The notes under the pieces are model-generated. The model was not told the origin of the DNA. It saw only the letters and a list, made by a program, of their open reading frames with translations, and made no database searches. A program made the position numbers and the translations under genes. DNA of 64,000 nucleotides, taken from assembly GCA_002716945.1 (NCBI GenBank), contig PBCF01000002.1, forward strand, positions 414,953-478,952, read 5' to 3'. Below, one piece after another: positions 4,308 through 60,801 of the stretch; position 1 is the first letter of the stretch, and each line of letters opens with the position of its first letter. The stretch comes from Gammaproteobacteria bacterium (GTDB lineage Bacteria > Pseudomonadota > Gammaproteobacteria > GCA-002705445 > GCA-002716945).

Positions 4308-7300
4308 CTATTGATATTTAACAAGAATATTTTCTTTTCCTAATAAATCCCTTAAATTATTGATTAAAGATGTTGATGGTGTAACATGCCAATCATTATC
4401 TAATTCTTTCATAGTTAAAAGATGTCCCTCACTTATATATTTTATAGATAACGGACAACTTCCATGTTTATACGGCTCTAATATATGAACTATTTTCTTT
4501 AATAAATCATTATTAAGTGCATTAGATTCTAAAAGTAATTCTATCTTTTTTGAATATTTTAATCTTGCAGTTTCTATATCAAATATTCTTGTAGCTTTAA
4601 AAGATAGTTGATTATCAAAATCATCCAAGGTAATTGTTCCAGTAAAGAATAATATATGATCTTCATGTATCATGCTTTTATATTTTTCATAAACATCATC
4701 ATAAACAACTATCTGCAATCTAGAGGTTGAATCATCTACCATTAATATATACATAAATTTGTCTTTACCGGATCTCTGACGTCTGATGTTTGTTATGACG
4801 CCAGTTATAGTAGAATGTTCTTCGGTATTTGAATCTATTTCATTTGAATTAATTTTTTCATAATAGTGTTTTATATTTTTAACTGACATCTCATCTATTT
4901 CATCGCTAAACTCTTGTATGGGGTGTCCTGTTAGATAAAATCCGATAACTTTCTTTTCTGAAGAAAATAATTTTAATCTATCTGAAGAACTTAAATTAGT
5001 ATCTTTTTTTGCTTGATTTATAGAGATGACATTAGAATTGACAATTTCCTTTGAATTATTTGAAAATAATTCTTTTTGTCCTGAAGCTTGTATATCTTGT
5101 TTGTTTTGGCCGAATGAGATAGCTTTATCAATTAAATTAATTAATAAATTTCTATTAGCGTTAAATTCATCAAAACTGCCTGAATATATTAATGATTCTA
5201 AAGTTCCAGTGTTAACAATATTCGAAGATATTCTTTCGCAGAAATCAAATATATTTAAAAATGAACCGTTTTTATTTCTTTCTTCAATAATATGTGCAAC
5301 TGCCGTAGCTCCAACACCTTTAATTGCACCAAGCCCAAACAGAATATTATTGTCATTAACAGTTGTAAAATCAAAGTTTGATTCATTTATATCTGGTTGT
5401 TTAACTTTTATATTAATTTCTGAACAAGCATGTACCAAGTTAATTATTTTATCAGTATTATCCATATTTGAAGATAAGCATGCAGCCAAAAACTCTGCCG
5501 GAAAATATGTTTTTAGATATGCTGTTTGATATGCAAGATATGCATATGCTACAGAATGTGATTTATTAAAACCATAACCTGCAAATTTCTCCATTTTAGA
5601 AAATATAGAATGAGCAACATTAGATGATATACCTTTTTTTTTGGCACCATTGAGAAATTTTATTCTATGTGTTTCCATTTCTTTTTTCTTTTTCTTACCC
5701 ATTGCTCTTCTTAATAAATCCGCTTCGCCTAGTGTATAGCCTGCTAAGGATCTTGATATCTCCATTACTTGTTCTTGATATAAAATAAGTCCATAGGTGC
5801 TAGATAATATAGTTTGTAAAAGATCATGCTCATATTGAATTTCTTTTCCATGTTTATTGCTTATAAAATCATCAACCATGTTAGTTCCTAATGGGCCTGG
5901 TCTGTATAATGCCACCAAAGCTACTATGTCATTAAAGCAATCTGGTTTCATCCTACCCATATATCTTCTAATTCCGTAAGATTCAGATTGGAAAACACCT
6001 GTTGTTTGTTTGTTTTGGAATAAATTAAAAACTTTTTTATCATTAAAATTTATTTTGTCAATGTGAAAATCTACATGATCAGATTTATTTTTTATCGCTT
6101 TTACTGTTTTATTTATAACTGTTAAGGTCCTTAATCCTAAAATATCAAATTTAACCAGACCAAGTTTTTCTATATCATCTTTATCAAGCTGTGTGACTAG
6201 TTCATCACTTTCTTCAATTCTATATAATGGTAAAAATCTATTTATTTTATCGGGTGTTATAACAATTCCTGCAGCGTGTTTACCAGCATTTGCTGGCAAG
6301 CCTTCTAATTTTTTTGAAGTATCAATTAAATGCTTTATATCTTTATTAGATGTATATTCTTTTTGTAAATCTTTATTTTCCGCTAAAGCTTCATCAATTG
6401 TTATACCAACTGGTAAAGCTGGAATTTGTTTTGCGATTCTATCTACAAAAGTATAAGCAAGGTCTTGAACGCGACCAACATCTCTAATAACACGTCTTGC
6501 AGATAAAGAATTAAAAGTAATTATTTGTGATACTTTGCTTTCGCCATATACTTCAATAATATGATCAATAACTTTTTGGCGATTCAACATACAGAAATCT
6601 ATATCAAAATCAGGAAGAGATTTTCTCTCGATATTCAAAAATCTTTCGAAAAGTAAATCATATTTTACTGGATCGATCGTTGTTATGCCTAACGCATATG
6701 CTACCAATGATCCTGCGCCAGATCCTCTTCCAGGGCCAACTGGTATTGAATTCTTTTTAGACCATGAAATAAATTCTTGTACAATCAAAAAATAATCTGT
6801 AAATTTCATCTCTTGTATAACATTTATTTCTTTTTGAAGTCTATCTATATAATTCTCTCTATTTTTAATTTTTTTAATATCTAAAATAGTCTTCAGACCT
6901 TCCATCGCTAGTTTAGAGAAATATTCATTATTATTCATATCTTTTGGCGATACAAATGATGGTAGATAATAATTTGATGTATCAATATGTAAATTACACT
7001 TCCTAGTAATATGACTTGCATTTTCAATGGCATCAGGAATATCAGAAAATAATTTATCCATATCAGTGTTTGATTTGAAGTACTGTTGATCAGAAAACTC
7101 TGTTTGTTTATTTCTATCATCAAGTTTTATTTTTCTGTTTATACAAACTTTGGTTTCATTTGTTTCAAAATCTTCTGAATTCATAAACAAAACATCATTA
7201 CTAGCAACAATTGGTAAATTTAGATCGTCTGCTATATTAATTATATGATTATTATAAATGTCCTCATTCAATCTAGATGTCCTTTCTATTTCACAATACA

Positions 7301-7793
7301 GTCTATCTTTATAGAATTCAGAAATTAATTGTATATCCTTTTTAATAATATCTATTTTTTCTGTTAAAAGATTTCTACCCAATAAACCATTTCTCCCACC
7401 AGTTAGCATTATTAGGCCTTGATTTAATTCGCATATTTTATTGATTGTTGTTGATGGTTTTTGATTTGCCTGTTTATTTGTATGCGCTTCTGTGATTAAT
7501 TTAATTAAATTATTATATCCGTCTATATTCTTGCACAATAGAACTATATTAGGAAAATATGAGTGATTATAATTTGTTGTAATAGGTATTTCACAACCAA
7601 TAATTGGTTTAATTTTTTTTTCTATACATTTCTGATAAAATTTTATAGCATTAGAAATATTTGAATGATCTGTAATAGCTAAACTTGAAATTTTGTTTGT
7701 CTTGGCATAATCAATTAGTTTATCAATTTTTATAATACCACTATCTAATGAATATGATGTATGTAAGTGTAGATGTATAAATTCATTCTTCAT
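4308..7793 (-). CDS. dnaE: DNA polymerase III alpha subunit.
   Basis: 1161 aa. PHP domain at the N-terminus (HLHLHTSYSLDSG), polymerase core motifs (GPGRGSGAGSLVAYALGIT, KFDILGLRTL) and the OB-fold region. Confidence 0.97.
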   Translation of the reverse strand: MKNEFIHLHLHTSYSLDSGIIKIDKLIDYAKTNKISSLAITDHSNISNAIKFYQKCIEKKIKPIIGCEIPITTNYNHSYFPNIVLLCKNIDGYNNLIKLITEAHTNKQANQKPSTTINKICELNQGLIMLTGGRNGLLGRNLLTEKIDIIKKDIQLISEFYKDRLYCEIERTSRLNEDIYNNHIINIADDLNLPIVASNDVLFMNSEDFETNETKVCINRKIKLDDRNKQTEFSDQQYFKSNTDMDKLFSDIPDAIENASHITRKCNLHIDTSNYYLPSFVSPKDMNNNEYFSKLAMEGLKTILDIKKIKNRENYIDRLQKEINVIQEMKFTDYFLIVQEFISWSKKNSIPVGPGRGSGAGSLVAYALGITTIDPVKYDLLFERFLNIERKSLPDFDIDFCMLNRQKVIDHIIEVYGESKVSQIITFNSLSARRVIRDVGRVQDLAYTFVDRIAKQIPALPVGITIDEALAENKDLQKEYTSNKDIKHLIDTSKKLEGLPANAGKHAAGIVITPDKINRFLPLYRIEESDELVTQLDKDDIEKLGLVKFDILGLRTLTVINKTVKAIKNKSDHVDFHIDKINFNDKKVFNLFQNKQTTGVFQSESYGIRRYMGRMKPDCFNDIVALVALYRPGPLGTNMVDDFISNKHGKEIQYEHDLLQTILSSTYGLILYQEQVMEISRSLAGYTLGEADLLRRAMGKKKKKEMETHRIKFLNGAKKKGISSNVAHSIFSKMEKFAGYGFNKSHSVAYAYLAYQTAYLKTYFPAEFLAACLSSNMDNTDKIINLVHACSEINIKVKQPDINESNFDFTTVNDNNILFGLGAIKGVGATAVAHIIEERNKNGSFLNIFDFCERISSNIVNTGTLESLIYSGSFDEFNANRNLLINLIDKAISFGQNKQDIQASGQKELFSNNSKEIVNSNVISINQAKKDTNLSSSDRLKLFSSEKKVIGFYLTGHPIQEFSDEIDEMSVKNIKHYYEKINSNEIDSNTEEHSTITGVITNIRRQRSGKDKFMYILMVDDSTSRLQIVVYDDVYEKYKSMIHEDHILFFTGTITLDDFDNQLSFKATRIFDIETARLKYSKKIELLLESNALNNDLLKKIVHILEPYKHGSCPLSIKYISEGHLLTMKELDNDWHVTPSTSLINNLRDLLGKENILVKYQ

Positions 7794-8359
7794 AAAGCTA
7801 TAGTATGTAAAGGTGAAAATGTCATTCTATGATGAATACAAGGTCCAAAAATATCTAATGCAATCTTATGATCTTTGGTAGGATAACCCTTATTCTTATC
7901 AAAACCATATACGTTGATTTGTGAGTGAATGAACTTCATTTCATTATCTCGAATTACCTTAGCTACAATAGATGCTGCCGATATAACTGGAATAGTTTTA
8001 TCGCCTTTTACAAAACACTTTGTGGGTACCTCGATTTTAGGAGCATATAGGCCATCAATATATATCAATTCAGGTATAACAGATAAATTGTCAAATGCCC
8101 TTTTCATTGATAATAGTGTAGCATTATGAATATTAATTTTGTCAATTTCTTGGTTTGATGAAAAACCAATGCCTAAAGCAAGACAGTTACTAACAATGTA
8201 TCTAGACAGTTTTACTCTCCTAGATTCGCTGATACTTTTAGAGTCAACCAATTGGCTATCATCGATGCCTCTGTCTAGTATCAACGCTACAGAAACTACT
8301 GGGCCAGCCAAGCAACCTCTTCCTACTTCATCAATACCAGCTAAAAGTTTGCTTGTCAT
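7790..8359 (-). CDS. rnhB: Ribonuclease HII.
   Basis: 189 aa. N-terminal GIDEVGRGCLAGPVV catalytic motif. ATGA overlap with dnaE. Confidence 0.9.
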   Translation of the reverse strand: MTSKLLAGIDEVGRGCLAGPVVSVALILDRGIDDSQLVDSKSISESRRVKLSRYIVSNCLALGIGFSSNQEIDKINIHNATLLSMKRAFDNLSVIPELIYIDGLYAPKIEVPTKCFVKGDKTIPVISAASIVAKVIRDNEMKFIHSQINVYGFDKNKGYPTKDHKIALDIFGPCIHHRMTFSPLHTIAL

Positions 8360-8426
8360 CGGTAAAACACTATATAATTGAACATTATTATAAATATATC
8401 AAAAATTTTGGGCCTATGCCGTTGAA

Positions 8427-9338
8427 ATGAGAAAAAATAAGATTAATATTGGAATAATTGGGCTCGGATATCTTGGAAAATATCACTATGAAAAATATCA
8501 TAAAAACCCATTATGTAATATAGAATGGGTTGTAGATATTAATAAAAAGAACCTAAATTATGTATCTCCACAGTATAAAAAAACAACTAATTATAAGGAA
8601 ATAATCAAAGATGTTGATGCTGTATCTATTGTAACCCCTACAAAAAATCATTTTCCAATATCAAAATATTTTCTAGAAAAGAATATACATGTTTTGTTGG
8701 AAAAACCTATGACAGATACGATAGAACAGGCAAATAAGTTAATAAAAATTGCAAAAACCAATAAACTTATACTTCAAATTGGACACCTTGAAAGATTTAA
8801 TCCAGTAATGGATACATTAAATAGACAAATAAAGAATCCCATGTTTATAGAAGGTCATCGTTTATCAAAGTTTAATGTTAGATCAACAGATGTAAATGTA
8901 ATATATGATCTAATGATTCATGATATTGATATAATGAAATCATTAGTTAATAGTAATATTAAAAAGATTTCTGCGTTTGGGAAGAAAATATTAACTAAAT
9001 CTACTGATATTGCAAATGTTAGAATTGAATTTAGTAATAAGTGTATAGCTAATTTGACTGCAAGCAGGATAAGTCAAAAGAATGAAAGAAAACTAAGGAT
9101 TTTTCAGAAAGATACATACCTATCTGTTGATTTTATGAATCATGAAATAAAAAAATATACAAAGGATAAAATAAAATTATTTAAGCGTGAAGATTTTAAG
9201 TTTGATAAATCTGATGCTTTAAAAATTGAAATTAATAATTTTATTCTTTCATGTTTAGGTAAAGAAAAACCTTTAGTAAATGGAGAGATGGGAAAAGAGG
9301 CGTTACTTATAGCTCATAAAATTTCTAAATTATTATGA
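8427..9338 (+). CDS. gnnA: Gfo/Idh/MocA-family NAD-dependent oxidoreductase. Probably UDP-GlcNAc 3-dehydrogenase (GnnA-like).
   Basis: 303 aa. N-terminal Rossmann GxGxxG (IGIIGLGYLG) and the family EKP motif (LLEKPM). Translationally coupled to a DegT aminotransferase and lpxB, beside lpxA. Confidence 0.6.
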   Translation: MRKNKINIGIIGLGYLGKYHYEKYHKNPLCNIEWVVDINKKNLNYVSPQYKKTTNYKEIIKDVDAVSIVTPTKNHFPISKYFLEKNIHVLLEKPMTDTIEQANKLIKIAKTNKLILQIGHLERFNPVMDTLNRQIKNPMFIEGHRLSKFNVRSTDVNVIYDLMIHDIDIMKSLVNSNIKKISAFGKKILTKSTDIANVRIEFSNKCIANLTASRISQKNERKLRIFQKDTYLSVDFMNHEIKKYTKDKIKLFKREDFKFDKSDALKIEINNFILSCLGKEKPLVNGEMGKEALLIAHKISKLL

Positions 9339-10438
9339 ATAAAAACAAATTAAAAATGTTTGATCTAACTAATCAATATTCAAAACTTAAACCAAAAATA
9401 AGTACATCCGTACAACAAGTATTAGAAAGTGGTCAGTATATATTAGGTCAGAATGTTATAAAATTTGAAAAAAATTTGAGCAAATATATTGGTTCTAAAT
9501 ATTCTATATCATGTAATTCTGGAACTGATGCGTTAATTTTATCTTTGATGTGTTTGGGCATAACAAGAGAAGATGAAGTTATAACATCTCCATTTACATA
9601 TTTTGCAACTGCTGAAGCTATAACATTATGTGGAGCTAAACCAATATTTATAGACATTGATAAAGATAGCTTTAATATAAATCCAGAAAAAATATCTCAA
9701 GCTATAACAAAAAAGACTAAAGCTATAATAATAGTACATATTTTTGGTCAGCCAGCAAATATGATTGAAATCAAAAAAATATGTAAAAAATTTAACATTA
9801 AAATAATCGAAGATTGTGCTCAATCTATTGGATCGAAAATTAAATCAATGAAGACCGGGGCTTTTGGTGATTTTGGTTGTTTTAGTTTTTTCCCTACAAA
9901 AAATTTAGGTTGCGCTGGTGATGGTGGAGCAATAGTAACATCTAATAAATCATTTGCCGAAAAACTCTTTAAATTAAGAAACCATGGTGGTGTCAACAGA
10001 AATAACCATGAATTCATCGGTATGAATAGTAGGTTAGATGAAATTCAGGCTGCTATTTTAAATGTTAAATTAAAGCATCTTGACTCATTTAACAGAAAAA
10101 GAAATGAGATTGCAAAGTTATATAAAAGACTAATAAACAACAAAAACATAAAATTACCATATCATAGTAAAAATAATTATCATGTTTATAATCTATTCAC
10201 TTTGCAGGTAAAAAATAGAGACAAATTTTGTAAGTATTTAAATAAAAATAAAATACCTTTTGGAATATATTATCCTACACCTTTATATAAACAAAAATCT
10301 CTAAAAAAGATCTGTTCACCAAAAAAACTGCCTATTGTTGAAAAAATCACAAAAGAGTGTGTATCTATACCAATGTTTCCGGAATTAGATTATGATTCTA
10401 TTAAATATATTTCAAATATAATTAACAAATTTAAGTAA
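9335..10438 (+). CDS. gnnB: DegT/DnrJ/EryC1/StrS-family PLP-dependent aminotransferase. Probably UDP-3-keto-GlcNAc aminotransferase (GnnB-like).
   Basis: 367 aa. Typical family N-terminus (GQYILGQNV..FE) and PLP-lysine region (SFFPTKNLG). ATGA overlap with the upstream oxidoreductase and TAATG overlap with lpxB. Confidence 0.6.
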   Translation: MNKNKLKMFDLTNQYSKLKPKISTSVQQVLESGQYILGQNVIKFEKNLSKYIGSKYSISCNSGTDALILSLMCLGITREDEVITSPFTYFATAEAITLCGAKPIFIDIDKDSFNINPEKISQAITKKTKAIIIVHIFGQPANMIEIKKICKKFNIKIIEDCAQSIGSKIKSMKTGAFGDFGCFSFFPTKNLGCAGDGGAIVTSNKSFAEKLFKLRNHGGVNRNNHEFIGMNSRLDEIQAAILNVKLKHLDSFNRKRNEIAKLYKRLINNKNIKLPYHSKNNYHVYNLFTLQVKNRDKFCKYLNKNKIPFGIYYPTPLYKQKSLKKICSPKKLPIVEKITKECVSIPMFPELDYDSIKYISNIINKFK

Positions 10439-53694: not shown

Positions 53695-54045
53695 ATGAGC
53701 AAATTAAATGATGATTTGTCTAAAAAAAAATGCCAGCCATGTGAAGGCGGTCTAGATCCAATGACTTACGATGAGGCAAAACACTTATTATCAAAATTAT
53801 CTAATGGATGGATATTAAGTCAAGATGGTAAAAAAATTTATAAAGATTATAAAACAAAAAATTATTATGAAATTACATCTTTGATTAATTTAGTGATATG
53901 GTTATCTAACAAAGAAGATCATCATCCTGAAATAAATTTTTCTTACAATACAGCACGGATTACTTATTTCACATATGCAATCAATGGGCTATCAGAAAAT
54001 GATTTTATCTGTGCATCAAAAATTGATCTTGCTACTAAAATTTAG
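53695..54045 (+). CDS. Pterin-4a-carbinolamine dehydratase (PCD/DCoH family).
   Basis: 116 aa. Family motif E-D-H-H-P-(x6)-Y-...-W-x-H, seen here as EDHHPEINFSY..ARITYFTY. Confidence 0.8.
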   Translation: MSKLNDDLSKKKCQPCEGGLDPMTYDEAKHLLSKLSNGWILSQDGKKIYKDYKTKNYYEITSLINLVIWLSNKEDHHPEINFSYNTARITYFTYAINGLSENDFICASKIDLATKI

Positions 54046-54662
54046 ATAGTTTTTCTTTCATTGAAAGCATGAGAAATTGTTTCGCTATCTAGATAACCTA
54101 ATTCACCGTTTAATGGTATACCAAAAGCAATTCTAGAAATTTTAATATTTAAATTTATTGCCATCTGATGTATATAATGGGCAGTTGCTTCCCCTTCCAC
54201 AGTTGTATTTGTTGCTAATATAAGTTCAGACACACAATTTGATTTAAGTCTTTTTTCAAGTTTCTCTATTCCAATTTCTCTAGGACCTCTTCCATCTATC
54301 GGTGAAAGGTTTCCTTCCAAAACAAAATAGTATCCATTGTAGTCAGTACTATTATTAATAACATAAACATCAGATGGGGATTCAGTTACACAAATCTTTG
54401 ATTTATCCCTATTTTCTCTAACGCAACTGAGACATTCATCATTAGTTTGTTCTAATACATCATTAAGATCTAAATAAATTCCACATATTTTACAATTTGA
54501 TATTTGAGTGGTTATATCTTCTAATTTCTTAGATAAGTTCAAAACCATTTTTTTGTCTGATCTTATAAGTTGATAAGCCATACGTTGTGCGGATTTTTTT
54601 CCTATTCCCGGTAGGATTGTTAGTGCTTCAATTAATTCAATTAACTTTCTTGATTCTTTCAT
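54042..54662 (-). CDS. recR: Recombination protein RecR.
   Basis: 206 aa. N-terminal HhH region (LPGIGKKSAQR), C4 zinc finger (CKICG...CLSC), Toprim domain. Confidence 0.95.
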   Translation of the reverse strand: MKESRKLIELIEALTILPGIGKKSAQRMAYQLIRSDKKMVLNLSKKLEDITTQISNCKICGIYLDLNDVLEQTNDECLSCVRENRDKSKICVTESPSDVYVINNSTDYNGYYFVLEGNLSPIDGRGPREIGIEKLEKRLKSNCVSELILATNTTVEGEATAHYIHQMAINLNIKISRIAFGIPLNGELGYLDSETISHAFNERKTI

Positions 54663-54665
54663 ACA

Positions 54666-54974
54666 TTAAAAAGGTAATTTAAAACCAGGCGGTATATTCA
54701 TCAATCCACCCATTTTACTTTTAATTTCATTATCAAGTTTATTCATGGCGTCATTACAAGCAGCAATAATCAAATCATTCAAAACCTTGGAATCACCTAG
54801 TTTAACTTCATCATCGATTTGAATATCAACTACTTGATGATTTCCTTTTACAGTAACTTTAACTGAACCACCACCTGCTTGTCCTTCTACCAAAATTTTC
54901 TCAATTTCTTTCTGCGCTTTTTTTACATTATCATAAACATTTTTAGCGTCTTTCATTTTATCTATGAAACTCAT
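54666..54974 (-). CDS. ybaB: Nucleoid-associated protein YbaB/EbfC.
   Basis: 102 aa. Conserved dnaX-ybaB-recR operon position. GGLMNIP... C-terminus typical of the family. Confidence 0.9.
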   Translation of the reverse strand: MSFIDKMKDAKNVYDNVKKAQKEIEKILVEGQAGGGSVKVTVKGNHQVVDIQIDDEVKLGDSKVLNDLIIAACNDAMNKLDNEIKSKMGGLMNIPPGFKLPF

Positions 54975-54976
54975 TA

Positions 54977-56497
54977 TTATCCCTCCACATCTTTAATTTT
55001 TTTTATAGATTTTTTATCAATATCTGACCCAAATATCTCTTTAATATTATTAATGTTGGGATCTTTTGACGCTTTGTTATAAATTATATTATTTTCAGTT
55101 TTCATTTTTTCTTTTTGTATGTAATCTGGTGTTTTTAAGTTTTCTTGATAAATAACTTCATATTTGTATTCTTTTTTAAAAAAATTATTTAATATTTTAA
55201 AAAAATCTGATAAGCATGATTTAGGAAAAATATCCTGTTTTTTCTGATCAATCATGAGTGAAAAATTATCATCATCTTTTTTTATCAGCACACAGTGTCT
55301 AGCGAGTTCTAACGTAATGCCACTAATATTAAGTTGATCTATAATCTTATTCCAATCAAAATCTATACCTTTTGAATTATCAGGCACTGAATTAACATTA
55401 TCTGTATCTGACGCATCATCATCAAAGAAATATATCATTCTAAGCATTATCATAGAAAAATAATCTTTTTGATTTGGGGTTAAAGGTATATCCTTTTTTG
55501 CTGAAATAGCTATCTGATAAAAAAGCTGTAGATCTTGAGATGATATATTCTTTGTAGTTAGATTATAAAACTCATCATTATCAAAAAAATTATCTTTAAT
55601 TTTTGGATTTATCTTATATAAAGATAATTTATATAAAATATCTATGATAGAATCCAATAGTTTTTCAAAACTAATACTATTTTGTATTCCTTCAATAATG
55701 CTAATAAGATCTTCCGGAGATTTGTGTATGACTTTAAGAATTATGTTTTGAATTATCTCTTCATCAATATGACCCATAAGTGTTTTAATTTTATTTATAT
55801 CTAATGACCCATTACAGTAGGAAATACATTGTTCTAATATGCTTAATGAATCTCGTAAACTACCTTTGGCATTTTTTGAAATTAAATCTAATGATTCATT
55901 ATCATATTCAATATTTTCTTTTTCTAGTATATTTTTTAGATGAGAAGCAATAACTCCAAAATCTACCTGGTTCAGTTTAAAGTGCAAGCATCGAGATAAA
56001 ACTGTTTCAGGTAATTTATCTGGTTCGGTTGTTGCTAGTAAAAACTTAACGTGTTCTGGTGGCTCTTCAATGGTTTTTAGTAATGCATTGAAACTTTTAT
56101 CAGATAGCATATGCACCTCATCAATAAGATAAATTTTAAATCTTGATGAAGTCGGAGAATATTGAACATTTTCCATCAATGTTCTGGTATCTTCAACTTT
56201 AGTTCTTGATGCAGCATCAATTTCTATTAAATCAAGATGGTTGCCCTTATCAATCTCTATACATGCATTACATTTCCCACATGGAGTATTCGAGATACCC
56301 TCATTACATAGAAGTGACTTAGCAAATAATCTTGCAATTGTAGTTTTACCTACACCCCTTGTTCCGGAAAATAAATATGCATGATGAATTTTATTAAGTT
56401 TTATAGAGTTAGACAACATATCAACAGCTAAATCTTGACCAGTAACTTCATTGAAAAATTTAGGTCTATATTTTAAGGCTAATACATCATTGGTCAT
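54977..56497 (-). CDS. dnaX: DNA polymerase III subunit gamma/tau.
   Basis: 506 aa. AAA+ Walker A GTRGVGKTT, zinc module CGKCNACIEI, sensor motifs. Shorter than E. coli tau. Confidence 0.93.
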   Translation of the reverse strand: MTNDVLALKYRPKFFNEVTGQDLAVDMLSNSIKLNKIHHAYLFSGTRGVGKTTIARLFAKSLLCNEGISNTPCGKCNACIEIDKGNHLDLIEIDAASRTKVEDTRTLMENVQYSPTSSRFKIYLIDEVHMLSDKSFNALLKTIEEPPEHVKFLLATTEPDKLPETVLSRCLHFKLNQVDFGVIASHLKNILEKENIEYDNESLDLISKNAKGSLRDSLSILEQCISYCNGSLDINKIKTLMGHIDEEIIQNIILKVIHKSPEDLISIIEGIQNSISFEKLLDSIIDILYKLSLYKINPKIKDNFFDNDEFYNLTTKNISSQDLQLFYQIAISAKKDIPLTPNQKDYFSMIMLRMIYFFDDDASDTDNVNSVPDNSKGIDFDWNKIIDQLNISGITLELARHCVLIKKDDDNFSLMIDQKKQDIFPKSCLSDFFKILNNFFKKEYKYEVIYQENLKTPDYIQKEKMKTENNIIYNKASKDPNINNIKEIFGSDIDKKSIKKIKDVEG

Positions 56498-56509
56498 ATT
56501 GATATTGTA

Positions 56510-57178
56510 TCATGACTTATTTTGAAATAAGTGACCAGTCTTTACAAAAATTATTGTTTCTTCTTCCTTTGTGAATGGTGCATGACTACTTTCATGTGGA
56601 CTTCGCAACCATGTTCCTTGAGGATAAACTCCATATTCATCATAGAAAACTCCCTTTATTACAAATATTTCTTCTCCACCAAAGTGTTTATGGTTAGTAA
56701 ACTGAGTGTGTGGTCTCCATTTTACAAGAGCAACTTGTTCTGTGATGAATTGATGTAATGGCATTACAGATAATCCATCAACAAGTCCCGGTAACCATTG
56801 TTCAGTCTGTGTATTTTTTATTATTTTATTTTTATCGCGATCATGGAATTGTCTCAATTTAACAAATATAGTACATCCTTTGTTACTAAATGGACTATGG
56901 CTAGAACCATCTGGATTTCTAATATACGTTCCAGCCGGATAGTTTCCAAATTCATCTGAAAATACTCCATCGAGCACAAAAATTTCTTCTCCTCTATCAT
57001 GTGTATGTCTTGTAAAATGACTATTTGCATTAAATTTAACGATTGATGTTGCTACAGCATATTCTCCACCATCATCTCTTTCTAAATAAATTCGCGAAAC
57101 ACCCTCTGATGGAGAATTATGATGTTCTTCATTTTCCGTATTAACAATTTCTTTTTTGGAATAATCTGTTCTTATCAT
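56510..57178 (-). CDS. Tandem-cupin (bicupin) protein resembling ChrR-type (cupin_7) domains.
   Basis: 222 aa with a clear internal duplication: FTRHTHDRGEEIFVLDGVFSDEFGNYPAGTYIRNPDGSSHSPFS and FTNHKHFGGEEIFVIKGVFYDEYGVYPQGTWLRSPHESSHAPFT. His/Glu-rich metal-site pattern typical of cupins. Stops 12 nt upstream of dnaX. Confidence 0.6.
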   Translation of the reverse strand: MIRTDYSKKEIVNTENEEHHNSPSEGVSRIYLERDDGGEYAVATSIVKFNANSHFTRHTHDRGEEIFVLDGVFSDEFGNYPAGTYIRNPDGSSHSPFSNKGCTIFVKLRQFHDRDKNKIIKNTQTEQWLPGLVDGLSVMPLHQFITEQVALVKWRPHTQFTNHKHFGGEEIFVIKGVFYDEYGVYPQGTWLRSPHESSHAPFTKEEETIIFVKTGHLFQNKS

Positions 57179-57185
57179 AGATAAA

Positions 57186-57296
57186 TCAATATTTTTTTAG
57201 CGTCCCTTTTAACCTTGCACCTGAATTACGATGAATTCTACGAGGTTTTGTATTTCTTTTTTTCTTATAAGTTTTTATACTATCTCTATCATTCAT
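57186..57296 (-). CDS. Possible 36-aa highly basic small ORF (MNDRDSIKTYKKKRNTKPRRIHRNSGARLKGTLKKY). Speculative.
   Basis: ATG at 57296, TGA at 57186-57188. 13 of 36 residues are Lys or Arg. Lies 7 nt upstream of the bicupin gene on the same strand. No obvious Shine-Dalgarno. It would leave only 28 bp to the divergent cupin gene. Confidence 0.15.
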   Translation of the reverse strand: MNDRDSIKTYKKKRNTKPRRIHRNSGARLKGTLKKY

Positions 57297-57324
57297 ATCA
57301 TTAGCTTATCATGGAGAATTAATT

Positions 57325-57648
57325 TTGGAAACGAGAGTTAAAAGGCCTTGGGGCTACTATAGAGTTATACATACAATAGGTAAAACTATAAAAGTTAAAG
57401 AATTAGTTATAGAACCTGGAAAGAGTCTTTCTAATCAAAGGCATTTCAAAAGATCAGAAATGTGGTATGTCGTAAAAGGCAAATGTATGGTTAATGATGA
57501 TATCTTAAGTCCCTTAACAGAGTCATATAACATACCTGCAAAAACTTGGCATAGAGGATATAATCCTTTTAATGAATCATGTCATATAATTGAAGTTCAG
57601 CATGGAATAGAATGTATTGAAGAGGATATAGAGGTAAATAATAATTAA
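57325..57648 (+). CDS. Small stand-alone cupin homologous to the C-terminal domain of type II mannose-6-phosphate isomerase / GDP-mannose pyrophosphorylase.
   Basis: 107 aa. RPWGYY, V.PG.SLS.Q.H..RSE.W.VVKG, Y.IP....HR..NP and IIEVQ.G...EDDI all match the ManC/AlgA C-terminal cupin. TTG start preceded by GGAG at 8-nt spacing. Confidence 0.7.
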   Translation: METRVKRPWGYYRVIHTIGKTIKVKELVIEPGKSLSNQRHFKRSEMWYVVKGKCMVNDDILSPLTESYNIPAKTWHRGYNPFNESCHIIEVQHGIECIEEDIEVNNN

Positions 57649-58085
57649 TTAGATAAGAATTCTTTATAAGAATTAGTAATTAAATAAGGACTTTTATATT
57701 TTTTTAAGAACTGTTCTTTTAAAAATTTTGTTAAGTCTTTAGAATCTACAAAATTAGAATTATGTATATTAATTCCTTTATTTGTCTCCATAAAACTAAA
57801 ACCTCTATAGGCTGATAAACCATCTACTTTGAGAACGAAACTTCTTGTTCCAGTATATAATATATAGAATTTAAAATTAGAAATAGTAGCCGATGATTCT
57901 ACTTTCCAACCATCATCTAATATTTTTTCCATTTTTAGTTCCTTCATCTGTTTGATAAAATCAGTTTTGTTTATATCTACCGATGATAATAATTTAATCA
58001 AGGCACTAATAAACGGAACTAGAAAATCTATAGATGTTTTAATATTTTTTTTCTCTAAGTCAGTAAGTTTACTTATCATAATCAT
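57645..58085 (-). CDS. Hypothetical protein with no recognisable family.
   Basis: 146-aa ORF with coding-like composition. Ends 9 nt from the tRNA-Ser(GGA) 3' end. No motif recognised by eye. Confidence 0.45.
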   Translation of the reverse strand: MIMISKLTDLEKKNIKTSIDFLVPFISALIKLLSSVDINKTDFIKQMKELKMEKILDDGWKVESSATISNFKFYILYTGTRSFVLKVDGLSAYRGFSFMETNKGINIHNSNFVDSKDLTKFLKEQFLKKYKSPYLITNSYKEFLSN

Positions 58086-58094
58086 ACTTTACCA

Positions 58095-58181
58095 TGGAGA
58101 GAGTGGGATTCGAACCCACGATACAGTTTCCTGTATACACGCTTTCCAAGCGTGCTCCTTCAACCACTCGGACATCTCTCC
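58095..58181 (-). tRNA. tRNA-Ser (GGA).
   Basis: Minus strand reads GGAGAGATGTCCGAGTGGTTGAAGGAGCACGCTTGGAAAGCGTG...GTGGGTTCGAATCCCACTCTCTCCA. Long variable arm. Anticodon loop TTGGAAA. Confidence 0.88.
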
Positions 58182-58182
58182 G

Positions 58183-59409
58183 TTAATTATTAGTAACTTT
58201 GATTCTACTTTGTTTGTTGAATAAATATATACCAAATATAAAGAAAAGAGATAAGCTTAAGATGCCTATTCTGGTGCTATCAAACATATAGGAAACCAAA
58301 CCTACCACAAGCGGTCCAATTAATGCAGCAAATTTACCAAGCATATTATACACACCATAGAGTTCTGAGCTACGATTTCTTGGAATTAATCTAGCATAGT
58401 AAGATCTACTTAGCGCCTGTATACCACCTTGTACAAGTCCAATTAATATTGCAATTAAATAAAACTCATAAATAGAAGTTAAATTAAAAGATATAAAAGT
58501 GATAATAATATAAATAAATAAACATATTTTTATGCTTATATCTATTGTGTAATAACTTGCTAGCTTATTAATTAAAAGTGTTCCAGGAAAACTAACAAAC
58601 TGAGTAACTAAAAGTGCAATCAATAAATCACTTGATGTAAATCCAATGGTCATTCCATAATTAACTGCCATACGAATTATCGTATCCACTCCATCAATAT
58701 ATATCCAATATGCAAATAAAAAATATAGTAATCGTTTATCGTTTTTTACATATCTATATGTATCCAATAAATTAATTTTATCTGATGAAATATTGCCATC
58801 ATCATTTTTCCAATAAAGTATTAATGGAATCATGAAAATTAACCACCATAATGCAGTAAATATGAAAACAATTTTTTTCTCCGCAATTAGTGTCATTGTC
58901 TTATCATCAAAATAAAAAAGAAAAAGTAGTGAAAGAACAAATGCAATTCCTCCGCCTAGATAACCAATAGCATAACCATACGACGATATTGAATCATAGT
59001 TTTTATCTGAACCTTCAAAGTTAACTAACATTGAGTCATAAAAAACATTAGAAAGCATAAACCCAAATAGTGAAATGCTAAATAATAGTGAAGCTAACAT
59101 CCAACTATTTTCTCCAACAAAAGATAATAGTAATGTAGAAGATATGCTTATAAGTGCAAAAAATATTAAAAAATTTTTTTTATCTTGTTTTCTATCAGAC
59201 AATAGGCCTATTAATGGTGCTAATATTATAAGTAATAAACTAGCAGATGAATTTGATATTCCTAACACCAAAGTTCTCTCTACATCAGAAAATAATAACG
59301 CAAAATTTTCAGCAAAAATAATTGGATAAAAACCAGCTAATACAATTGTCGCATAAGCAGAATTAGCCCAATCATACATAACCCAACTAAAAATTTTTTT
59401 ATTTTTCAC
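58183..59409 (-). CDS. MFS transporter, UMF1/Atg22-like family.
   Basis: 408 aa with 12 predicted TM segments. N-terminal SWVMYDWANSAY motif characteristic of the UMF1 subfamily. Confidence 0.8.
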   Translation of the reverse strand: MKNKKIFSWVMYDWANSAYATIVLAGFYPIIFAENFALLFSDVERTLVLGISNSSASLLLIILAPLIGLLSDRKQDKKNFLIFFALISISSTLLLSFVGENSWMLASLLFSISLFGFMLSNVFYDSMLVNFEGSDKNYDSISSYGYAIGYLGGGIAFVLSLLFLFYFDDKTMTLIAEKKIVFIFTALWWLIFMIPLILYWKNDDGNISSDKINLLDTYRYVKNDKRLLYFLFAYWIYIDGVDTIIRMAVNYGMTIGFTSSDLLIALLVTQFVSFPGTLLINKLASYYTIDISIKICLFIYIIITFISFNLTSIYEFYLIAILIGLVQGGIQALSRSYYARLIPRNRSSELYGVYNMLGKFAALIGPLVVGLVSYMFDSTRIGILSLSLFFIFGIYLFNKQSRIKVTNN

Positions 59410-59425
59410 AAGTAAAATTTTATTA

Positions 59426-59512
59426 TGGAGAGACAGGGATTCGAACCCTGGAAGGTCGTTAAACCTTGCTGGTTTTCAAGACCAGTGCATTCAACCGCTC
59501 TGCCATCTCTCC
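59426..59512 (-). tRNA. tRNA-Ser (TGA).
   Basis: Minus strand reads GGAGAGATGGCAGAGCGGTTGAATGCACTGGTCTTGAAAACCAG...GGGTTCGAATCCCTGTCTCTCCA. Long variable arm. Anticodon loop CTTGAAA. Confidence 0.88.
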
Positions 59513-59547: not shown

Positions 59548-60801
59548 TCATAACTCAATAGTTTTAAATCCAGTATAACTATGGAGTTGATTTGGAATAT
59601 GTATGGTTTTGTTTTGATAATTATTTTCTATAAGAGCTGCTAGAGTTCTGCCTATAGCTAATCCAGATCCATTTAACGTATTAACAAAGAATTTTTTATT
59701 AGTTTTATCTTTAAATTTTATATTCAATCTTCTAGATTGAAAATCTCCAAATGTGCTACATGATGAAATTTCTCTATATTTATTCTGACTGGGAAACCAT
59801 GCTTCTAAATCATAAGTTTTTTCAGATGCAAATCCTAAATCACCCGTACATAATAGAACTCTTCTATATGGTATGGATAAAGATTCTAAAATCATCTCAG
59901 CATGAAGAGTAATCTCTTCGAGGGCATTTTCAGTATCTGAAGGATTAGCAATTTGTACTAGCTCCACTTTTTCAAACTGATGTTGTCTTATAATTCCCGT
60001 GGTATCTTGTCCATATGCACCAGCTTCGGATCTAAAACATGGAGTATGTGATACTAATTTTTTTGGTAAATCCGTATGATTAAAGATATGATTTCTATAT
60101 AAGTTGGTTAGAGGAACTTCAGCGGTTGGAATTAAATATAAATCAGTATCACGAAGATTAAACAGATCGGTTTCAAATTTAGGTAATTGCCCCGTTCCTA
60201 TCAGACTTGTTTTATTTACTATATACGGAACGTTATATTCTAAGTAATTGTTTTTCTCGCTATGAATAGTTAACATAAAATTAACTAATGCTCTATGAAG
60301 TTTTGCAACTTTACCTTTCATCACTGTAAATCTTGATTTAGCCAGATTAACGCCAGATTCAAAGTCTAGTAATTTTTCTTTATTAAAAATATCAGAATGG
60401 TCACAAAAATCTTTTGGCTTACAACCCCATTCTTTGATTATTTTGTTATCTTCAGATGTTACACCTACTGGTACATCCTTTAACGGTATGTTTGGTATAC
60501 CTAAAACATAATCATTTAGTTGTGATTCAGTATCTTCAAGAGATTTTTTGATATTAGTAATAGTTTTATCTAGCTCTATAGATTTAGATTTTAATTTGTC
60601 TCTTTCTTTTTCACTAGTAATGTCTTTAAAAATTTCAGCAATTTTATTCTTTTCTGCAGAGATAGATTCTTTTCGAGTTATATAGTTTTTTCTTTGAGTG
60701 GTTAAATCTTGAATTAATTTAACATCAAGACTAAAAGCCCTAGTTTTCAATGCTTCTTTAAGTTCTGAAACATTATCAAGTATAAATTTTACATCTAACA
60801 T
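59548..60801 (-). CDS. serS: Seryl-tRNA synthetase.
   Basis: 417 aa. N-terminal coiled-coil arm. Class II motifs (FRSEAGAYGQDTTGIIRQHQF..., GSGLAIGRTLAAL). Confidence 0.95.
   Translation of the reverse strand: MLDVKFILDNVSELKEALKTRAFSLDVKLIQDLTTQRKNYITRKESISAEKNKIAEIFKDITSEKERDKLKSKSIELDKTITNIKKSLEDTESQLNDYVLGIPNIPLKDVPVGVTSEDNKIIKEWGCKPKDFCDHSDIFNKEKLLDFESGVNLAKSRFTVMKGKVAKLHRALVNFMLTIHSEKNNYLEYNVPYIVNKTSLIGTGQLPKFETDLFNLRDTDLYLIPTAEVPLTNLYRNHIFNHTDLPKKLVSHTPCFRSEAGAYGQDTTGIIRQHQFEKVELVQIANPSDTENALEEITLHAEMILESLSIPYRRVLLCTGDLGFASEKTYDLEAWFPSQNKYREISSCSTFGDFQSRRLNIKFKDKTNKKFFVNTLNGSGLAIGRTLAALIENNYQNKTIHIPNQLHSYTGFKTIEL

Follow-up and report, generated by a model that had tools for sequence, protein, structure and literature searches.

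A vertically inherited gene block of variable content between tRNA-Ser(GGA) and dnaX in marine low-GC Gammaproteobacteria

This study concerns the interval between the genes tRNA-Ser(GGA) and dnaX in a stretch of 64,000 nt (from here: the window) of contig PBCF01000002.1, assembly GCA_002716945.1, a gammaproteobacterial metagenome-assembled genome (MAG) from Tara Oceans with a base composition of 28.5% G+C in the window. The interval is occupied by a block of four genes: h146, an open reading frame (ORF) of 146 amino acids (aa), a small stand-alone cupin of the PMI type on the opposite strand, the short basic orf36, and bicupin, a tandem-cupin gene that abuts dnaX. We report that this block belongs to the core gene content of a low-GC clade of marine Gammaproteobacteria and is vertically inherited. 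The account that we favour, and hold to be fairly probable, is that the clade-wide block goes back to an old insertion that filled the tRNA-Ser(GGA)-dnaX interval and has changed gene by gene since. A preliminary description, made from the letters of the window, had instead proposed a possible tRNA-associated accessory islet.

Related contigs were chosen by their h146 homologues, which ranged from 76% down to 35% identity; L-numbers (e.g. L085) are the labels of the contigs or loci that were compared with the window. A shared gene order was present in L081-L090, L094, L095 and L177-L181. It runs from ftsK through serS, tRNA-Ser(TGA), an MFS transporter gene, tRNA-Ser(GGA), zero to three further genes, h146, a position of variable content, bicupin, dnaX, ybaB, recR and the genes for a pterin dehydratase and an M48 peptidase to RNase T. 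In the deepest branch (L096, L261), where DnaX is 39-41% and RecR 49% identical to the window proteins, the order is tRNA-Ser(GGA), h146, a gene for an AEC-type transporter (Mem_trans) and dnaX. Bicupin, serS and the MFS gene are absent at the site in this branch, and L096 only has an extra 266-aa gene between tRNA-Ser(GGA) and h146. Between tRNA-Ser(GGA) and dnaX, h146 is the sole gene found in every lineage of the clade. Along a series of successively more distant loci, identity to the window was 76, 51, 47, 41 and 35% for h146, 86, 60, 57, 46 and 44% for bicupin, and 79, 54, 46, 46 and 47% for DnaX. The divergence of h146 and bicupin keeps pace with that of the housekeeping neighbours.

Because the order is conserved across related contigs, which the preliminary description had itself named as a sign against an islet, the block genes are core and not accessory. 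The other sign it had named, a composition matching the flanks, was found as well: GC, GC3 and the synonymous-codon likelihood of three block genes had z scores of −1.48 to +1.58, within 1.6 standard deviations of 56 window genes, and show no deviation. A recent islet would be a mobile element that took the 3′ end of tRNA-Ser(GGA) as its target and whose integrase was lost afterwards. The placement of the block at a tRNA 3′ end would fit such an element, as would its lack from the dnaX neighbourhood in 80 distant gammaproteobacteria and the differences in tRNA-adjacent gene content among sublineages. However, the composition of the block is that of its flanks, and Pfam and NCBIfam searches of every ORF from serS to dnaX with 30 aa or more gave cupins, an MFS transporter or no match, with no integrase or recombinase among them. 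No tRNA 3′ repeat was found at the distal border; the 22-nt 3′ segment (up to 3 mismatches allowed) occurs window-wide only in the two tRNA-Ser genes, and a repeat search found no att-like sequence or repeats. That no integrase or direct repeat had been seen initially is thereby borne out. Among at least 11 contexts, no presence/absence polymorphism of the whole block was observed, single genes only being variable, and every relative, to a DnaX identity as low as about 40%, has the block, whose proteins diverge in parallel with core genes. Moreover, the variation on the tRNA side in the window is a deletion and not an insertion, as detailed below. A recent islet is close to refuted, with next to no probability left to it, and in annotations the stretch should not carry the label 'genomic island'. 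What survives of the islet idea is an ancient, fixed, lineage-specific filling of the tRNA/dnaX junction, while the recent mobile element does not.

As an outgroup, 80 distant gammaproteobacterial loci with DnaX identities of 34-51% were listed by a DnaX scan of genome contigs. Neither bicupin nor h146 lies within 10 kb of dnaX in any of these 80 loci. In at least 15 of them (L011, L028, L029, L030, L031, L035, L042, L044, L047, L054, L064, L065, L069, L070 and L078), tRNA-Ser(GGA) is encoded on the strand of dnaX, with 144-473 bp between its end and dnaX. They belong to Steroidobacteraceae, Candidatus Marithrix, Thiohalomonadaceae, Acidiferrobacterales and unclassified MAGs. Some other loci carry unrelated cargo between a tRNA-Ser gene and dnaX, namely two PQQ dehydrogenases in L072 (Pseudohongiella; 5666..10001), a DUF347 membrane protein in L059 (8748..10001) and, in L046 (7168..10001), a PAS histidine kinase after tRNA-Ser(CGA). 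Hence, dnaX does adjoin tRNA-Ser elsewhere, a comparison that the preliminary description had recommended. With tRNA-Ser(GGA) as the immediate upstream neighbour of dnaX in at least 15 distant loci, the block fills an otherwise uninterrupted junction. With the block genes absent there, this adjacency supports the cautious option of that description, an old insertion or lineage-specific genes. In the simplest reading, tRNA-Ser(GGA)-dnaX is an old adjacency whose interval takes in genes, a polarity that we infer; the window's clade would have gained h146 there in the distant past and further genes afterwards. The junction may be a recurrent site of gene gain without integrases, and the interval may be useful as a marker for following gene turnover among marine gammaproteobacteria not yet cultured.

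Alternatively, no insertion took place, the occupied interval being older and the adjacency elsewhere resulting from loss of the intervening genes or from independent rearrangements. The small share of loci with the adjacency, 15 of 80, would agree with this, and so would the general fluidity of the interval, with different genes in other lineages, and the wide occurrence of the bicupin family among gammaproteobacteria. On the other hand, an exhaustive profile search found h146 limited to this clade, bicupin stands elsewhere in unrelated contexts, e.g. tsaD-bicupin-umuDC in L093, and the adjacency is found in at least five separately named groups. We consider it unlikely that the interval was occupied from the start and continue to prefer an old insertion.

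Gene content within the block varies among the relatives. Between the tRNA and h146, the closest relative, L085, has a gene for a 147-aa DUF4399 protein that overlaps the h146 start. L087 and L089 have an additional gene for a PCuAC copper chaperone, and L089 a further one for a TauE-like membrane protein. When the window was aligned with L085, the match covered the tRNA and the opening bases of the DUF4399 gene, jumped by about 440 bp and resumed at the start of h146. Therefore, this sequence is missing from the window, and what took place at the tRNA-proximal border was not an insertion but a deletion, that of the DUF4399 gene. A signal peptide and a motif rich in His are present in the DUF4399 protein; a literature search on DUF4399 gave nothing relevant. 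P0276, a remote homologue of h146 (E 7e-7), likewise comes straight after a DUF4399 gene. The DUF4399 gene stands directly before h146, often overlapping it, in L091 (3..732), L085 (5565..6435) and L087 (5588..6441) and likewise for an h146 homologue of about 25% identity; in some lineages PCuAC copper-chaperone genes are located further upstream of it.

The position between h146 and bicupin is held by a co-directional 2Fe-2S ferredoxin gene (C-x5-C-x2-C...C) in L087, L089 and L095, by genes for UDP-glucose dehydrogenase and a 2Fe-2S ferredoxin in L081/L082 and L094, and by the opposite-strand cupin in the window, L083, L085 and L177-L182. Since the cupin-bearing loci are mutual closest relatives by DnaX identity, the ferredoxin was likely the earlier occupant. 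No remnant of a ferredoxin gene was found in the slot, and no ferredoxin, DUF4399 or PCuAC gene was found elsewhere in the window. The cupin probably took the place of the ferredoxin gene, almost exactly, near base for base. In L081 (6456..7624) and L094 (4494..5663 and 6666..8203), the genes for UDP-glucose dehydrogenase and dnaX are broken into two to three ORFs. Both are pilon-polished long-read assemblies, the UDP-glucose dehydrogenase gene is whole in L082, and the split ORFs are probably assembly indels rather than pseudogenes.

The small cupin begins at a TTG codon at 57325 with GGAG 7 nt upstream. It scores 72.9 bits against PF01050 (gathering cut-off 23.6) and covers model positions 10-112 of 116. 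For type-II mannose-6-phosphate isomerases (MPIs) the motif Ser-x-Gln-x-His-x-x-Arg was described, together with isomerase-domain-only MPIs from picocyanobacteria and a diverse and abundant stock of MPI genes in viral metagenomes from the sea (PMC9602691). Such MPIs are known to rank among the diverse and abundant auxiliary genes that T4-like phages carry in marine waters. The Ser-x-Gln-x-His plus Arg catalytic motif of the isomerase-domain-only type-II class is present in the window cupin as S36-N-Q38-R-H40-F-K-R43, with E45 and H76 in addition, as read from the translation. With this motif and the Glu and His ligands, the 107-aa protein would be a metal-dependent mannose-6-P/fructose-6-P isomerase. 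A bifunctional GMP/PMI was rejected, TIGR01479 reaching 66 bits against a cut-off of 373 and matching at model positions 357-458 only; upstream of the cupin, no remnant of an N-terminal domain was found.

Within the subclade, the cupin is 79-87% identical, more than its neighbours are. Beyond the clade, the viral and metagenome collections gave best relatives of 42-63% identity, nearly all of which are C-terminal domains of proteins of 250-300 aa. The N-terminal half of these fusions is a cytidylyltransferase-like domain (PF01467; HldC/RfaE-II-like phrog_7878), and the similarity of the phage proteins to the cupin starts exactly at the domain boundary. Next to the fusion genes lie those for UvsX, or for the clamp gp45 and the clamp loader gp44, and the contigs have a G+C content of 30-36%; the carriers are therefore T4-like marine phages. 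Examples are located at 2244..3032 in L097, 4557..5339 in L109, 4515..5393 in L114 and 4512..5408 in L187. In IMG/VR the cupin has at least 200 relatives, and among the 80 loci kept nearly all were cytidylyltransferase-like/MPI cupin fusions. The analogy to GMP/PMI suggests that the phage fusion is a bifunctional sugar-phosphate isomerase/nucleotidyltransferase. The domains of cellular bifunctional GMP/PMI enzymes are 42-46% identical to the cupin, and the best GenBank phage match is 43% identical.

A neighbour-joining tree was computed from 58 representatives over about 105 columns, rooted on cellular GMP/PMI domains, with 40 bootstraps. The cupins of the clade fell several nodes inside the phage radiation, and their sister group was from phages in 40 of the 40 bootstraps. 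This topology points to a single phage-to-host capture of the MPI domain in the ancestor of the subclade. Transfer could also have gone the other way, from an old resident gene of the bacterial clade into phages, in line with the usual host origin of auxiliary metabolic genes in phages and with the host origins that were proposed for some phage MPI clusters (PMC9602691). Against this stand the nesting of the clade's cupins within a far more diverse phage radiation under the root on cellular GMP/PMI domains, the presence of ferredoxin and not cupin in that position in the outgroup sublineages, and the domain structure, since the phage versions have two domains and the bacterial gene equals exactly one of them. 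A host-to-phage transfer appears improbable. With a capture from phages, the small cupin would be a phage-type auxiliary gene, encoding a type-II MPI domain, that is now a fixed chromosomal gene of a streamlined bacterium abundant in the sea.

For h146, the only constant gene of the interval, the conserved start is the third codon at 58079, giving 144 aa; Met3 is invariant in 53 of 53 homologues. The protein had no match in Pfam, NCBIfam or PHROGs and no sequence relative in the PDB. Its homologues form 117 clusters, all from marine metagenomes and none of them named. A profile search of 1.84 billion representatives gave 34 hits, consisting of four full-length clusters, two distant proteins of 133-137 aa (P0276 and P0285, both on contigs shorter than 800 bp) and a remainder of mostly fragments. 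When the profile was extended by these two, the search listed the main h146 family only. The motifs FLVP, TNKG and YKSPY are invariant in the homologues. In the AlphaFold2 (AF2) model (pLDDT 83, pTM 0.81), two N-terminal helices are followed by a six-stranded antiparallel meander and two C-terminal helices. Viral relatives were found neither by sequence nor by fold. The protein is soluble, with a median isoelectric point (pI) of 6 among the homologues; a membrane protein was considered and rejected, as the hydrophobic stretch 18-36 has charged residues in homologues. The family is clade-restricted, and its confident model has no clearly recognisable fold relative; as a possible known counterpart, the p32/C1QBP/Mam33 fold was considered. 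Being conserved, clade-restricted and confidently modelled with no known relative, it is a well-defined target for structural and functional work.

The role of h146 may be linked to the dnaX module or to DUF4399, or its position may simply be inherited. In the first case, h146, which always stands 1-2.2 kb before dnaX, would serve the DnaX clamp-loader/YbaB/RecR module as an accessory specific to the clade. Even the deepest branch, with no serS, MFS gene or bicupin at the site, has h146 beside dnaX, and the conservation of h146 equals that of DnaX. Yet the whole synteny of 10 kb is conserved in this streamlined clade, which makes adjacency weak evidence, and one remote homologue has as its partner the gene of a periplasmic DUF4399 protein instead. 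Neither a clamp-loader chi/psi nor a DNA-related protein was among the top hits of the fold search, and a role as HolC/HolD (chi/psi) accessory subunit was rejected, there being no similarity in fold or sequence. We regard a replication-tied unit as very unlikely. A broader joint reading would take h146 as a new family whose fold is an undescribed variant and whose role, specific to the clade, is tied to the invariant position of the gene, and the junction as a recurrent integrase-independent gene-capture site in Gammaproteobacteria. In that case h146 might be a DnaX/YbaB/RecR accessory or possibly the cytoplasmic partner of the periplasmic His-rich DUF4399 protein in metal handling. We judge this combination of claims to be quite unlikely.

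The bicupin belongs to a family of more than 7900 homologues. Its two Cupin_7 stretches score 188 bits in Pfam (cut-off 27), and it aligns over its full length with PDB entry 3O14 (residues 2-217 to 4-215, E 3.8e-45; profile E 8e-59), which places it among bicupins of the 3O14 type. In barrel 1, H58, H60, E64/E65 and H94 are invariant in 18 of 18 aligned homologues; the His residues of barrel 2 are missing in L087, L089 and 3O14. The protein is predicted to hold a divalent metal in its N-terminal barrel and would be an enzyme or small-molecule binder rather than an anti-sigma factor. A ChrR anti-sigma factor was rejected. TIGR02451 gave 59.5 bits against a cut-off of 124.5 and matched at model positions 110-190 only, and the protein begins directly with a cupin and has no N-terminal zinc-binding anti-sigma domain. 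No gene for an extracytoplasmic function (ECF) sigma factor lies beside bicupin, whose neighbours are orf36/PMI cupin and dnaX, and none lies there in the relatives either. The label 'anti-sigma factor ChrR' should not be taken over in annotation. A dimethylsulfoniopropionate (DMSP) lyase was likewise discarded, the Pfam score being only 15.7 bits with a cut-off of 27. No viral relatives of bicupin were found by sequence, and literature searches on Cupin_7 and 3O14/ChrR gave nothing relevant to its function. In another marine lineage, a 64%-identical bicupin is located between tsaD and a umuD/umuC-like pair, with umuC in several ORFs (L093, 6001..8508). One may speculate that the former ferredoxin neighbour hints at redox chemistry. 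The bicupin may be a metal-dependent enzyme or ligand-binding protein, and it is plausible that the two cupins constitute a small metal-dependent enzyme pair, as had been suggested initially.

Compared with L085, orf36 has nine synonymous and nine non-synonymous changes, with a pN/pS of 0.25 and a pS of 0.42 that equals the pS of bicupin; the other five frames have pN/pS values of 0.5-1.1 and contain stops. The ORF is confined to the window and the L085 sublineage; in L083 it is absent and the spacer measures 63 bp. It had no match in Pfam, NCBIfam or PHROGs, and the divergent spacer contained no RNA family and no stable fold. The substitution pattern indicates purifying selection in the frame of orf36 and in no other, and orf36 is probably a real, very young small-protein gene that heads the bicupin-dnaX run. 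Judging from their spacing (gaps of 7, 12, 2 and 3 nt), orf36, bicupin, dnaX, ybaB and recR are probably co-transcribed.

All ORFs and the tRNA-Ser(GGA) placement given in the preliminary description were recovered by ORF calling, ARAGORN and Pfam; the features are collected in Table 1. The slot is bounded upstream by tRNA-Ser(GGA), whose 3′ end (58095) points towards the block, and downstream by dnaX, 12 nt from the end of bicupin. The convergent cupin (+) and h146 (−) genes share 4 nt in their stop codons (57645..57648), and therefore a terminator has no room between them. Promoter-like and terminator-like sites were no more frequent in the stretch than expected by chance in a scan, and a search for RNA families in it gave none besides tRNA. 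PHROGs yielded nothing useful for any of the four block proteins. At NCBI, the proteins of the region are MBH44387 to MBH44392 (locus tags CMD88_), annotated as 'cupin' or 'hypothetical protein'. The ATG22-like MFS gene has a tRNA gene on either side, tRNA-Ser(TGA) and tRNA-Ser(GGA), the gaps being 1 and 16 nt, an arrangement kept in most of the clade.

Table 1. Features at the tRNA-Ser(GGA)-dnaX locus, in positions of the window
Feature	Position	Strand	Basis or remark
serS	59548..60801	-	ORF call
tRNA-Ser(TGA)	59426..59512	-	tRNA scan
ATG22-like MFS transporter	58183..59409	-	ORF and Pfam
tRNA-Ser(GGA)	58095..58181	-	ARAGORN; Rfam tRNA, 60 bits
DUF4399-loss junction	58080..58094	-	pairwise alignment of the window with L085
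h146 (146-aa ORF)	57645..58085	-	conserved-Met version 57645..58079, 144 aa
107-aa PMI-type cupin	57325..57648	+	PF01050, E 3.2e-20, 72.9 bits
orf36, 36-aa basic ORF, pI 11.5	57186..57296	-	unannotated; 7 nt upstream of bicupin
bicupin, 222 aa	56510..57178	-	two Pfam Cupin_7 (ChrR-type), E 2.5e-56, 188 bits
dnaX	54977..56497	-	ORF; NCBI 'DNA polymerase III subunit gamma and tau', MBH44387.1
ybaB	54666..54974	-	downstream of dnaX
recR	54042..54662	-	downstream of ybaB

According to the history that we propose, the block would have entered the tRNA-Ser(GGA)-dnaX junction before the marine low-GC clade diversified, within which DnaX identity now goes down to about 40-46%. In this history h146 would be the constant member, and bicupin would belong to a single major branch. 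Upstream, there would once have been a gene for a periplasmic DUF4399 protein, in some cases accompanied by one for a PCuAC copper chaperone, and the lineage of the window would have lost it by a clean deletion. In the middle position, an adrenodoxin-type 2Fe-2S ferredoxin would have given way, in the window's subclade, to the stand-alone type-II MPI cupin on the opposite strand, whose closest relative appears to be a domain found in proteins of T4-like marine phages. The 36-aa basic ORF would have been added in the closest sublineage.

Several points weigh against this history. The polarity of the insertion does not come from a species tree, and the block could be ancestral and lost elsewhere. 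The adjacency was seen in only 15 of the 80 distant loci, several of the 80 having too little upstream sequence to tell, and seven of these 15 come from one family, the Steroidobacteraceae. The link of the cupin to phages stems from a neighbour-joining tree of about 105 columns, in which monophyly of the host clade was obtained in 22 of the 40 bootstraps. The sequences of this tree were gathered by similarity to the query, and cellular stand-alone relatives may be under-sampled. The operon was deduced from spacing in a genome in which all genes are tightly packed, and the enzyme roles of the block proteins are predictions from sequence. The two cupins are ordinary members of known families; a mild surprise comes only from the orphan family h146 and from the link between the small cupin and phages. 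No long-standing open question is touched, and the locus is ordinary overall, with a few modest curiosities.

The block shares with tRNA-linked genomic islands its location 3′ of a tRNA gene, a junction that is uninterrupted in other lineages and a variable gene content. Unlike such islands, it has no integrase, att repeats or compositional signature and is fixed across a deep clade, and its local variation consists of deletion and single-gene replacement. The small cupin resembles the isomerase-domain-only type-II MPIs of picocyanobacteria and of cyanophage S-SCSM1 (ORF118) in its PF01050 domain, its length (about 107-115 aa in this class) and the Ser-x-Gln-x-His-x-x-Arg motif. It differs from the S-SCSM1 MPI, to which it is 32% identical, in its gammaproteobacterial carrier and in that its activity is predicted from the motif, and from the isomerase-domain-only MPIs in that its nearest relatives are C-terminal domains of cytidylyltransferase-like fusions. 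Like the 223-aa protein of PDB entry 3O14, the bicupin has two Cupin_7 barrels, the same length and the HxH...E...H pattern in the first barrel. Unlike 3O14 and the L087/L089 orthologues, it keeps the second-barrel His residues (HKH, ...H). Entry 3O14 is a structural-genomics entry deposited as 'Anti-ECF sigma factor, ChrR', an ill-fitting name for a protein with no anti-sigma domain. With ChrR of Rhodobacter sphaeroides (PDB 2Q1Z/2Z2S; TIGR02451) the bicupin shares a cupin of the same Pfam family, Cupin_7, but, in contrast to ChrR, it has no zinc-binding anti-sigma domain at its N terminus, and the profile matched 2Q1Z with an E value of 0.82.

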